DNA of 64,000 bases from an uncultured bacterium (GTDB lineage Bacteria; B130-G9). Position numbers and translations under genes: made by a program. The notes beneath the pieces were generated by a model, which worked only from the letters and a program-made list of their open reading frames with translations, was not told the DNA's origin and did no database searches. The stretch is from positions 1,744 to 65,743 of the forward strand of contig CBDVDH010000016.1 of assembly GCA_965372715.1 (NCBI GenBank), read 5' to 3'. The number at the start of each line of letters is the position of its first letter. Positions within the stretch are counted from its first letter, which is position 1. This document shows, one piece after another, positions 10,106-11,846 of this stretch.

Positions 10106-10660
10106 TCACTTGAAAGGTAGGATATCGACCGGCAGGCCAACCCTCATGAAGAATCTGGCGAAGGCCTGGGACAAATGCTCTCTGTAGGGTGGGAGGAGAC
10201 GCAGACGATCTCCGCGGCTTCTGACAAGTTGCGTGAGGAGTTCATAAGGAATGCCATATATATTGTGGAAATCCACGACAAGAATCTTCGTTTCGAAACC
10301 CTGTAGATCGCACTTGCTCAGCATGTGGTAACCGGGGGAGTAGCCACGCCTAATGCTTTCCTTGCCCTCTGCTTTCTTGAAGAAGCCACCCTCCCGGTTC
10401 GCAAGCTCTGCAAGAGGCCAGAAAGGTGAAACCAAGACTACGTCCACCTTTGGATGTTGAGGATCGATGTCACAAGACTGACTGAGAATAACAACATTGT
10501 GGGATGTTTCCTTGAATAGCGGGGACCTGTTGCTGTCCTCGACAATAGGTTCGTATATCGGGCAATCATTCACGATGTCTCCCTGTTCGATAGGATCGTG
10601 AGAACCTACCACCACAAACCAGGGGTAATCATCCCTATCAGGGGAGCTGGCCTGCTTCAC
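10106..10660 (-). CDS. Conserved hypothetical protein, third gene of the TIGR04255 operon (possible PemK/MazF-like fold)
   Basis: QGDI, VVILSQSCD, VDF and RLLPPYREHLSQAFARFFMRVGLP motifs; GTG start overlaps the upstream stop by 1 nt. Confidence 0.7.
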   Translation of the reverse strand: MKQASSPDRDDYPWFVVVGSHDPIEQGDIVNDCPIYEPIVEDSNRSPLFKETSHNVVILSQSCDIDPQHPKVDVVLVSPFWPLAELANREGGFFKKAEGKESIRRGYSPGYHMLSKCDLQGFETKILVVDFHNIYGIPYELLTQLVRSRGDRLRLLPPYREHLSQAFARFFMRVGLPVDILPFK

Positions 10661-11082
10661 TATAGACCATAATCCTCGGGTTCAATGGGTCGAGGTCTGG
10701 CCTTCACCCGAATCACTCCCCTTGCCCGGATTATTCTGGTTCTCTTGGGAGGTATCCGAACTACGAGCTCGTGTGGCTCATATCTGACCATTTCGGCTAG
10801 AATAGCTTCATCCGAGATCTCTCCTGGCACATCCCATTCATTCTGCCTCAGAGTAAGCGGCACGGATGCAGTTTGTTCAGTCCTCGATAGCTCCGACACC
10901 AAACCGAGCACTGAGTCTCGGACCCCATTTCCCGCCTCATAGTCCCCACAATGCGGGGATCTAGGGGCGAGCCTGGAGAACCAGCCTTGGCCATCGATAG
11001 CGGAACTCGTATCACCGGGGGCAAAGGGGAACGGATGGGGATCATAACAGTAACCTGCAATTGTGACTGATTCTTGAGTCAT
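10660..11082 (-). CDS. Hypothetical protein, middle gene of the TIGR04255 operon
   Basis: ATGA overlap with the upstream stop; low-complexity N-terminus, basic beta-strand-like C-terminus. Confidence 0.65.
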   Translation of the reverse strand: MTQESVTIAGYCYDPHPFPFAPGDTSSAIDGQGWFSRLAPRSPHCGDYEAGNGVRDSVLGLVSELSRTEQTASVPLTLRQNEWDVPGEISDEAILAEMVRYEPHELVVRIPPKRTRIIRARGVIRVKARPRPIEPEDYGL

Positions 11083-11846
11083 TTGAACCTCTCCATCAAC
11101 TCGCCCTCAATCATCTTGAAAAACACCTTATGAATCAGTTCATCCGCGTCATTCGCCCAGTTAGCGATCTCCCCTACATCCTGCGGGATATCTTGGCCAA
11201 TGGTCTCAACAACCGTTTCCCAAGTGAGAAGGTCCTTGTTGTTCCTCCTGCCTCGGGCGAATCGCAAGCGTAACTGCCCGGCTGGCTTCTCAGAAGCAAA
11301 GAAAAAAGTTGAATCCAATGCTGTGGGTGATGCTGAAACTCCGGTGCCCTCGAATAGTGAGCTCTTCGGTCTCAGGTCAGTCTTGAGAGTCCGCGAGATG
11401 TAATCCGATATATTCTCGGCCTGATAATCAAAATCCACGGCGTCGATATAGCGTAGCATTAGGCGATTGAATTTCGGTTTCTGGCCTTCAGCATAAATGC
11501 TCAAGAGCGTCTGCACGAGGGTATGAATACTTCGGTGGAAAATATCCCTTTTGAATCCCTCCTTTACTTGATTCATAGTGACAATCCCCGGCCCTACTTG
11601 GACCAGCGGCCACTCATTCTCGCCTCTTCGGAAACGATGCTGAATCATGTGAGCAGCAACCTCGGCCGGCACTTGGGCTGGGGGTAACGGCTCATGAAAT
11701 GGGTAGTCATCGCGGAGCTTCTCGAAAATCCTGCCAGCGAGTATCCCATAATACGGCTCGACCGACGCGCCTTCTTCCCGAAGTTGCCAGTGCAGCTCGA
11801 ATATAGCCTCCACCAACGGTGGATTACTAAGAATTGGATAGTCCAC
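11079..11846 (-). CDS. TIGR04255 family protein
   Basis: N-terminal L.NPPLVEAIFELHW, VQVGPG, RLMLRYID and C-terminal HKVFFKMI pattern recognised as typical of this family; 255 aa. Confidence 0.8.
   Translation of the reverse strand: MDYPILSNPPLVEAIFELHWQLREEGASVEPYYGILAGRIFEKLRDDYPFHEPLPPAQVPAEVAAHMIQHRFRRGENEWPLVQVGPGIVTMNQVKEGFKRDIFHRSIHTLVQTLLSIYAEGQKPKFNRLMLRYIDAVDFDYQAENISDYISRTLKTDLRPKSSLFEGTGVSASPTALDSTFFFASEKPAGQLRLRFARGRRNNKDLLTWETVVETIGQDIPQDVGEIANWANDADELIHKVFFKMIEGELMERFK

Follow-up and report, generated by a model that had tools for sequence, protein, structure and literature searches.

Toxin-antitoxin-chaperone (TAC) systems are encoded by three co-transcribed genes, in which a SecB chaperone accompanies a toxin (HigB, MqsR, HicA or CmdT) and an antitoxin with a C-terminal chaperone-addiction tail. 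HigB1-HigA1-SecB(TA) of M. tuberculosis and CmdTAC of E. coli are examples. The MazEF, PemIK (Kid-Kis) and CcdAB systems consist of two tightly coupled genes, and the small upstream gene encodes an antitoxin whose C-terminal segment is paired with the toxin. The published catalytic residues of MazF are an Arg/Thr pair. Panacea/PanA and NetFlax are combinatorial toxin-antitoxin (TA) networks with promiscuous antitoxin domains. Rst_3HP is composed of three hypothetical proteins and belongs to the P2/P4 phage hotspot.

The locus described here is located in a 64,000-nucleotide stretch of DNA from an uncultured bacterium, referred to below as the window, and contains three genes on the reverse strand. 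Gene 1 (positions 11079..11846) has a GTG start and encodes a TIGR04255 family protein of 255 amino acids. Gene 2 (10660..11082) has an ATG start and encodes 140 amino acids, and gene 3 (10106..10660) has a GTG start and encodes 184 amino acids. Genes 1 and 2 overlap by 4 nucleotides (ATGA), and genes 2 and 3 overlap by 1 nucleotide (TAGTG). These overlaps, first reported in a sequence-only reading of the window, agree with the open reading frame list and with inspection of both junctions in the alignment. The lower GC content reported at the same time is also present. The trio is 51.5% GC, compared with 56.5% for the window (5 points higher), 61.5% for the upstream LarA-like gene, and 55.9% for the downstream GGDEF gene, and an equally low value occurs in 1.4% of windows of the same size. 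The flanking genes encode a LarA-like racemase and a PAS-GGDEF protein and have no functional kinship to the trio. The trio had been described as inserted between unrelated genes, which holds for the flanks but not for a recent private insertion, as other members of this bacterial family also carry a form of the cassette in their LarA-to-GGDEF slot. No inverted repeats bracket the ends of the trio.

The spacer between the LarA-like gene and gene 1 (11847..12087, reverse strand) is 241 nucleotides long with a GC content of 50.2%, and is presumed from its position to be the promoter region. No sigma-70-like promoter was identified in a scan of this spacer, and the four terminator-like sites returned by the promoter/terminator scan are no more than expected by chance. 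Downstream of gene 3 is a conserved spacer of 289 nucleotides. It has no Rfam match, and its folding energy is no better than that of shuffled sequence (z=+0.83).

The trio is interpreted here as a three-part toxin-antitoxin-like module, with a probability of roughly 0.6. The module is widespread and apparently undescribed, with parts that are swapped like cassettes between related genomes, and it is possibly anti-phage. Gene 3 would be the effector, a putative toxin of the MazF/CcdB fold. Gene 2 would serve as both connector and antitoxin, with its C-terminal motif binding and neutralising the gene 3 protein and its N-terminal half binding the TIGR04255 protein. Gene 1 would be an add-on that either stabilises the connector or senses a signal. 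Loss or release of the connector, for example on phage infection, would free the toxin and lead to growth arrest. This proposed logic would resemble that of TAC systems, with the third protein controlling the stability of the antitoxin and thus the release of the toxin.

The AF2 model of gene 3 has a pLDDT of 83.6. The top eight Foldseek matches in the PDB are all MazF, YdcE or MoxT (E 7e-4 to 4e-3, probability 1.00). The top matches have a target-normalised TM of 0.59-0.66, a query TM of 0.43 and an rmsd of 5.5-7 Å, and CcdB is found at rank 32. Since the model is confident and its eight best matches are all MazF, YdcE or MoxT, the earlier suggestion of a MazF/PemK-like SH3 barrel is supported at the level of the fold. 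It is not supported at the level of sequence, where gene 3 differs from MazEF and PemIK in having no match to PF02452. Assignment of gene 3 to the PemK family by sequence was rejected because its family profile, compared by hhalign with a profile of 25 PemK sequences, gave a probability of 0.8%, and because PF02452 matched three other genes in the genome of the window but not gene 3. No Pfam (E<=1), NCBIfam or PADLOC match was found for gene 3, and its only match among the PHROGs is a weak one to phrog_4575 (function unknown, 1.2e-6).

The gene 3 family has the signature QGD ... (S/T)Q(S/D)CD ... GYH ... VDF ... RLRLLPPYREHLSQAFARFFMRVGLP. The QGDI, VVILSQSCD and VDF motifs singled out in the sequence-only reading (the last as VVDF here) are present and conserved across the family. 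Residues Cys63, Asp64 and Arg154 are invariant even among the most distant members, and His112 and His162 are conserved. Gene 3 exceeds MazF in length by approximately 60 residues, its C-terminal helix is highly conserved, and it has an invariant Cys-Asp rather than the Arg/Thr pair of MazF. Because Cys63-Asp64 and Arg154 are not this pair, and there is no reliable alignment to MazF, RNase activity is not established.

Gene 2 resembles the upstream gene of MazEF, PemIK and CcdAB in its size, its tight coupling to the presumed toxin gene, and its toxin-paired C-terminal segment. It can be divided into two parts. The N-terminal half (10841..11082, reverse strand, about residues 1-81) is linked to TIGR04255. 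Its sequence is rich in Pro, Gly and Ser, and it has the motif layout YP.QY ... LLEIDLSSVWPHFEIKNETS, which is common to gene-2 proteins that come after TIGR04255. The C-terminal part (10660..10840, reverse strand, about residues 82-140) is linked to gene 3 and presumed to be toxin-neutralising. It contains the motif ...VVRIPPKRTRIIRARGVIRVKARPRPIEPE..., which is approximately 40 residues long and probably forms a beta-hairpin. Of 83 loci, at least 63 have a match to a motif HMM of the C-terminal part in the open reading frame immediately before gene 3, whereas 3109 decoy open reading frame ends gave no match. Most of the remaining loci in this set have a visibly related variant of the motif. 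The motif is basic, with a net charge of +5 in the window copy and a median of +1, while the tails of MazE-type antitoxins are acidic. Gene 2 also differs from the MazEF, PemIK and CcdAB antitoxins in that it contains no AbrB or RHH domain; no recognisable DNA-binding domain of any kind was identified, nor was any Pfam, PADLOC or PHROG match.

The two parts of gene 2 follow different neighbours. In partial Mantel tests, in which the sequences are related and not fully independent, the N-terminal half co-varies with gene 1 after adjustment for gene 3 (r=0.63, p=5e-4) and not with gene 3 (r=0.07, n.s.), while the C-terminal part co-varies with gene 3 after adjustment for gene 1 (r=0.41, p=5e-4) and not with gene 1 (r=0.16, n.s.). 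The median length of gene 2 is 130 amino acids where TIGR04255 is present and 102 amino acids where it is absent, with many of the latter being 70 amino acids. The locus is similar to TAC systems in that the middle, antitoxin-like protein has an extra segment for the third protein and two-gene versions without this segment exist. It is also similar in having three genes that, from their overlaps, are presumably co-transcribed. It differs in that the extra segment lies at the N terminus instead of forming a C-terminal tail, and the presumed toxin has a MazF fold rather than being HigB, MqsR, HicA or CmdT. The gene order here is accessory-antitoxin-toxin. Gene 2 had been proposed as a chaperone-dependent antitoxin of the TAC type, which does not fit a protein whose gene-1-linked segment is N-terminal and whose C-terminal part goes with gene 3.

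Gene 1 matches the NCBIfam family TIGR04255 (sporadTIGR04255) over its full length, with residues 6-255 aligned to positions 2-252 of the 252-position profile. The score is 105.2 bits (E=4.9e-30) against a curated cut-off of 30 bits, in agreement with the family first assigned to it. No Pfam (SecB included), PADLOC or PHROG match was found, and a full-text literature search found no paper that mentions TIGR04255. The AF2 model has a pLDDT of 88.4 and a pTM of 0.87. Its best Foldseek match in the PDB is an archaeal TBP, 1ais (E=3.7e-4, probability 0.98), with weak Bet v1/START-like (helix-grip) and Eag-chaperone matches below it. Against a viral structure library, the matches are the large subunits of giant-virus early transcription factors (VETF-L). 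The model appears to have a TBP-like double-domain fold composed of two beta/alpha repeats, and this class is only moderately secure because the TM-scores of the fold matches are low (0.2-0.36). SecB is absent from the top 50 Foldseek matches. The idea that gene 1 is a SecB-like chaperone as in TAC systems is not borne out, given the lack of a Pfam match and the TBP-like/helix-grip fold; the third protein of this locus differs from that of TAC systems in both family and fold. Pfam and the fold search gave no recognisable toxin or enzyme signature. Gene 1 is regarded as a putative accessory component, which may act as a partner, stabiliser or sensor.

TIGR04255, a gene-2 homologue and gene 3 are found together in 38 of the 83 sampled loci, and the junction between genes 1 and 2 is an overlap of 4 or 1 nucleotides in 28 of these 38. 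The trio is therefore conserved as a unit. Two-gene forms with a 70-amino-acid gene 2 and no TIGR04255 make up about 20 of the 83 loci, and elsewhere the gene 2/gene 3 pair adjoins unrelated genes encoding VanW, a peroxiredoxin or a DNA methylase.

A natural recombination breakpoint within gene 2 is visible in a sister genome of the same genus (L008), in which LarA is 95% identical. Inside gene 2, at approximately position 10840, DNA homology to the window sets in, and the C-terminal part of this gene is retained together with gene 3 at about 88-90% DNA identity, as judged by eye. TIGR04255 is absent, and there is no DNA homology to the N-terminal half of gene 2 or to the upstream 241-nucleotide spacer. 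Upstream of the breakpoint, the slot instead contains a membrane open reading frame and a ThsB_TIR gene (PF08937, E=4.6e-25). A third genus shows 76.5% identity in gene 1 but only 46.8% in gene 3, with the flanks at 58-62%. At another locus (L165), the N-terminal module of gene 2 (E=4.7e-12) continues into another C-terminal part, and the third gene is also a different one.

The third gene was also classified at 36 TIGR04255 loci sampled without bias. It belongs to the gene-3 family in nine, to Pfam HEPN in eight and to PIN in two. HEPN and PIN are bona fide toxin domains, and their replacement of gene 3 in sister TIGR04255 operons supports the earlier proposal that the last gene is the effector. 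This exchange of modules, in which TIGR04255 and the N-terminal part of gene 2 are paired with HEPN, PIN or the gene-3 family, is similar to that of Panacea/PanA and NetFlax. The difference is that the promiscuous element here is a separate protein with a docking segment on the antitoxin, whereas in those networks it is the neutralising domain itself.

Three other explanations were weighed against the three-part module. Genes 2 and 3 could be a plain two-gene TA pair with gene 1 an uninvolved neighbour. The frequency of the 70-amino-acid forms, the retention of the pair without TIGR04255 in L008, and the occurrence of the pair beside VanW, peroxiredoxin and DNA methylase genes are all consistent with this. 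Such a pair would not, however, explain the short overlaps between genes 1 and 2 in most trios, or why gene 1 and the N-terminal half of gene 2 co-vary once gene 3 is taken into account. The N-terminal motifs go with TIGR04255, in L165 together with a different toxin, and TIGR04255 also heads three-gene operons of this layout in which the toxin is HEPN or PIN. An uninvolved gene 1 is therefore considered unlikely.

The C-terminal motif of gene 2 is also found fused to a RES domain (L015), to a papain-like domain with GNAT (L061), and to TPR repeats (L079). RES and GNAT are known toxin-type domains, and these fusions raise the possibility of reversed polarity, in which gene 3 is a constant regulator, immunity or docking protein that reads a C-terminal tag, and the upstream TIGR04255, RES, TIR and GNAT/papain proteins are the effectors. 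The unusually high conservation of gene 3 between bacteria and archaea and its lack of the MazF catalytic pair, as far as this can be judged where no reliable alignment exists, would fit such a role. Each fusion was seen only once, though, and HEPN and PIN hold the position of gene 3 in TIGR04255 operons. The fold of gene 3 is that of a toxin family, and TIGR04255 has no toxin or enzyme signature, which makes reversed polarity quite unlikely. It is very unlikely that gene 3 is instead an enzyme on a MazF-like barrel, such as a Cys-dependent hydrolase or peptidase with the C-terminal motif of gene 2 as its substrate, within a processing or regulatory system. The Cys63-Asp64 pair, invariant across the superfamily, the two conserved histidines, the lack of a sequence relationship to PemK, and the low query TM and high rmsd point in this direction. 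Against it, no protease fold is present among the gene 3 fold results, the eight best matches are all MazF-family toxins, and sister operons have HEPN and PIN in the place of gene 3.

If the three-part reading is correct, TIGR04255 would be a third type of accessory protein in three-part TA systems, beside SecB-like chaperones, and TIGR04255 and the gene-3 family, both large and unannotated, would gain their first functional context. The clean two-part connector, with its breakpoint between the halves, should be easy to dissect by domain swaps and truncations, and its architecture illustrates how modules diversify through cassette exchange. A MazF-like scaffold bearing an invariant Cys-Asp would suggest a new toxin chemistry. 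A broader reading is offered only tentatively and is on balance doubtful. Here a large and so far unrecognised class of combinatorial TA/abortive-infection systems with three parts, in Bacteria and Archaea, Asgard included, would share TIGR04255 as a common hub that acts as sensor or guardian. Two-part connectors would link this single hub to many toxins with no relationship to one another. The gene-3 family would represent a new enzymatic toxin built around a Cys-Asp centre on the MazF scaffold, and RES, TPR, GNAT/papain or TIR-associated modules would be recruited through the same tail as well.

The locus is similar to Rst_3HP in being a three-gene operon of unannotated proteins, and a correspondence between the two had been suggested. 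No PADLOC-DB v2.0.0 family matched any of the three proteins at E<=1, a result that covers Rst_3HP if PADLOC-DB v2 carries it, and so there is no evidence that the two are related. The window contains no obvious defence island, and PADLOC models match none of the three proteins.

A DUF6414 (Dodola) gene is located 204 nucleotides upstream in one locus type (L001-L004, probably also L011). Because this neighbour is confined to a single locus type, functional coupling with it is not claimed. By hhalign, the TIGR04255 profile has no relationship to the DUF6414 protein or to the 220-amino-acid partner found in paralogous trios. PDB sequence matches, for which both single sequences and family profiles were queried, are at chance level (a RAP-domain at E=0.2 and a B-cell linker at E=0.65).

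The gene-3 family is large and without annotation in the libraries searched. It contains 4427 clusters at 90% identity and 2428 at 50%, with at least 569 confirmed matches among species-representative genomes. Members are found in Bacteria and Archaea, including Asgard, with 50-57% identity between bacterial and archaeal sequences. A tblastn search of phage and plasmid collections found nothing for gene 3, and the IMG/VR viral contigs contain only four gene-3 loci. Both families have the sporadic distribution of accessory genes, with gene 3 present in five of 41 genomes and TIGR04255 in 47 of 401 sampled genomes (~12%). The window's own genome contains two copies of TIGR04255 and three gene-3 paralogues.

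The three overlapping genes of the sequence-only reading are present in the window as minus-strand ORFs. Gene 1 (11846..11079) encodes 255 aa, gene 2 (11082..10660) 140 aa, and gene 3 (10660..10106) 184 aa. Genes 1 and 2 share 4 nt (ATGA), and genes 2 and 3 share 1 nt (TAGTG). Gene 1 is, as had been proposed, a TIGR04255 protein, and matches the family over its full length with 105.2 bits against a cut-off of 30. The GC content of the trio is 51.5% against a window mean of 56.5%, within the lowest 1.4% of same-size windows. It is also more AT-rich than its flanks, as claimed earlier: the upstream LarA-like gene has 61.5% GC and the downstream PAS-GGDEF gene 55.9%. 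The 289 nt that separate gene 3 from the PAS-GGDEF gene (9817-10105) are about 90% identical to the corresponding spacer of the sister genome, a conservation equal to that of adjoining coding DNA. This spacer has no match in an Rfam search, and the fold predicted for it does not exceed shuffled sequence in stability (z=+0.83).

Gene 2 is a connector composed of two parts, an N-half and a C-part. The C-part carries a motif of about 40 residues with the consensus ...D(I/F)VV(R/K)MPPKK.Y.V.V.VK.I.KA.P.IVEPE. Of 83 non-redundant loci, 63 have a match to an HMM of this motif in the ORF directly preceding gene 3, compared with none of 3109 decoy ORF ends; most of the loci missed contain a visibly related variant. 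Gene 2 has a median length of 130 aa in the 38 loci with TIGR04255 versus 102 aa in those without, and is only about 70 aa long in two-gene minimal forms. The TIGR04255-bearing loci share common motifs in the N-half, and in 28 of these 38 loci genes 1 and 2 share 4 or 1 nt at their junction. The two parts behave differently in partial Mantel tests on 29 trios. The N-half correlates with gene 1 when gene 3 is controlled for (r 0.63, p 5e-4), but not with gene 3 when gene 1 is controlled for (r 0.07, n.s.). The C-part shows the reverse pattern, correlating with gene 3 (controlling gene 1; r 0.41, p 5e-4) and not with gene 1 (controlling gene 3; r 0.16, n.s.).

The slot downstream of the LarA-like gene was compared among the only seven genomes, all of a single family, that represent the phylum in the GTDB set. 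TIGR04255 is present in six of the seven. A gene-3 family member is present in five of the seven, versus none of 34 sampled genomes of other families. In the sister genome of the same genus (G001, locus L008, MAG contig CAYZPW010000047.1), LarA is 95% identical to that of the window. The DNA is approximately 88-90% identical, judged by eye, from window position ~10840 onward, a stretch that begins with the last ~60 codons of gene 2 and runs through gene 3 and the spacer into the start of the GGDEF gene. No homology is seen in this alignment upstream of ~10840. In that region (1486-2453), where the window has gene 1 and the N-half of gene 2, the sister genome carries a 161-aa ORF together with a gene for a ThsB-type TIR protein (PF08937, E=4.6e-25); its gene 2 measures only 76 aa. 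The locus has no visible ThsA-like gene. The junction between the two halves of gene 2 coincides exactly with one recombination boundary. In a different genus (G003), all three genes occupy the slot; gene 1 is 76.5% identical to that of the window and gene 3 only 46.8%, with flank identities of 62% (LarA) and 58.5% (GGDEF). G004 and G005 have gene 1 beside LarA at a contig end, G006 keeps a gene 1 fragment, and G002 has no cassette in the slot. The cassette is therefore a long-standing yet mosaic occupant of the LarA-GGDEF slot.

TIGR04255 was found in 47 of 401 sampled genomes versus 0 of 14 control genomes, and 36 of the resulting loci were inspected. Typically, TIGR04255 is followed by a gene of 97-242 aa that abuts or overlaps it, and then by a third gene. 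This third gene belongs to the gene-3 family in nine loci, with two to three further divergent relatives. It matches Pfam HEPN in eight of the 36 (best E=3.7e-8; a HEPN-like pattern is recognizable by eye in about 13) and PIN in two of the 36 (E=4.7e-9). In one locus, L165, the gene 2 N-module (E=4.7e-12) continues into another C-terminal part, and the third gene lies outside the gene-3 family.

A second TIGR04255 operon in the window's own genome (L091, G000:C24, minus strand, 2247-1486, 1485-823, 826-443) encodes TIGR04255, a 220-aa connector, and a 127-aa HEPN-like protein with a weak full-length Pfam HEPN match (E=0.03) and an R-x5-H motif. Adjoining it is a two-gene pair without TIGR04255 (minus strand, 3538-2834 and 2897-2616), encoding a 234-aa protein and a 93-aa HEPN-like protein; the former has the C-terminal ...DxDWxL...CxxxxFV domain of the 220-aa connector. 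The genome contains two more gene-3 paralogues, both in divergent trios: L089 (G000:C32, 239-901, ~771-1298, 1261-1905) and L090 (G000:C53, minus strand, 2994-2332, 2390-2001, 1953-1411). Both are ordered as a 220-aa protein, a gene-2-like small protein, and a distant gene-3 paralogue (E=1.3e-21 and 2.7e-9). The gene-2-like proteins end in a related tail, ...RRIGPSKIDPSWVR and ...VERAQPPEIDPDWVF. The 220-aa protein of these trios has no family match, and shows by hhalign no relationship with TIGR04255 (probability 0.4%). Its homologues also adjoin gene-3 paralogues in G001 and G006.

Gene 1 has no match in Pfam, PADLOC, or PHROG. Its AF2 model, built from 38 homologues, is confident (pLDDT 88.4, pTM 0.87) and contains a duplicated beta-alpha-beta(n)-alpha unit. 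The first Foldseek match in the PDB is the archaeal TATA-binding protein 1ais (E=3.7e-4, prob 0.98), followed by weak Bet v1/START-like and Eag/SciW chaperone matches; none is SecB-like. In the viral model set, the named matches that score best are the early transcription factor large subunits (VETF-L) of giant viruses, which carry a TBP-like domain. The TM-scores are low (0.2-0.36), and the predicted TBP-like double domain is therefore assigned with moderate confidence only.

Gene 3 has no match in Pfam, NCBIfam, or PADLOC. Its family comprises 4427 clusters at 90% identity and 2428 at 50%, with at least 569 matches in species-representative genomes confirmed by tblastn, and extends to Methanothrix, ANME and Asgard archaea, Chloroflexota, Planctomycetota, Nitrospirota, and others. 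The motifs noted earlier (QGDI, VVILSQSCD, and VVDF) are all present and conserved throughout the family. C63, D64, and R154 do not vary even among the most distant members, and Q26, G27, S62, and F131 are almost unchanged. The earlier suggestion of a PemK/MazF-like protein holds for the fold and not for sequence membership. The best eight PDB matches of the AF2 model (pLDDT 83.6) are all MazF, YdcE, or MoxT (prob 1.00, E 7e-4 to 4e-3, TM 0.59-0.66 on target), which supports a MazF-like fold; CcdB ranks 32. Membership of PemK at the sequence level is ruled out by the lack of a Pfam match and an hhalign probability below 1% against the PemK profile. In the genome that contains the window, PF02452 matches three other genes and not gene 3. 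The catalytic pair of MazF is Arg/Thr. The chemistry of gene 3 may differ, because this pair could not be mapped onto it, hhalign giving no reliable alignment to the PemK profile.

The best-supported reading of these sequences is that the trio forms a three-part toxin-antitoxin-like module. Gene 3 would be a MazF-fold effector, the gene 2 C-part its putative neutralizer, the N-part a putative docking segment for TIGR04255, and gene 1 a putative stabilizer or sensor. The proposed working resembles that of toxin-antitoxin-chaperone systems. It departs from them in having a third protein that does not resemble SecB and a docking segment that would lie in the N-terminal part of gene 2; membership of that family is ruled out on these grounds. 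The suggested identity with Rst_3HP is unsupported, since no PADLOC model matches the trio. A full-text literature search found no paper mentioning TIGR04255, and the architecture would represent a novel form of three-part toxin-antitoxin system. It combines two uncharacterized families and has clear modular genetics.

Several points count against the module. The gene 2 tail is basic, no DNA-binding domain was found in gene 2, no MazF catalytic signature was recognized in gene 3, and phage, plasmid, and viral contigs seldom carry the gene-3 family. Three other readings were considered: a plain two-gene toxin-antitoxin pair with gene 1 as a bystander, a reversed polarity in which gene 3 serves for docking or immunity, and a role of gene 3 as a processing enzyme. 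Directly upstream of gene-3 homologues, the gene 2 tail is also fused to a RES domain (L015, 367-1488, 373 aa), TPR repeats (L079, 5000-5974, 324 aa), and a papain-like plus GNAT protein (L061, 4579-5994, 471 aa). One Methanothrix-type locus has a gene of the DUF6414 family 204 nt upstream; this family corresponds to DolA of the Dodola defence system (bioRxiv 10.1101/2024.10.26.620412). These four associations, essentially a single case each, hint at a conflict-system context and are not proof of it.

The Asgard members of the gene-3 family include Promethearchaeum syntrophicum MK-D1. Upstream ORF calls at its locus (L043, chromosome NZ_CP042905.2, 2794492-2807010) show neither a recognizable gene 2 tail nor TIGR04255. 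The homologue is 46% identical to gene 3 and, as MK-D1 is a cultured archaeon, would offer a cultivable source of the protein.
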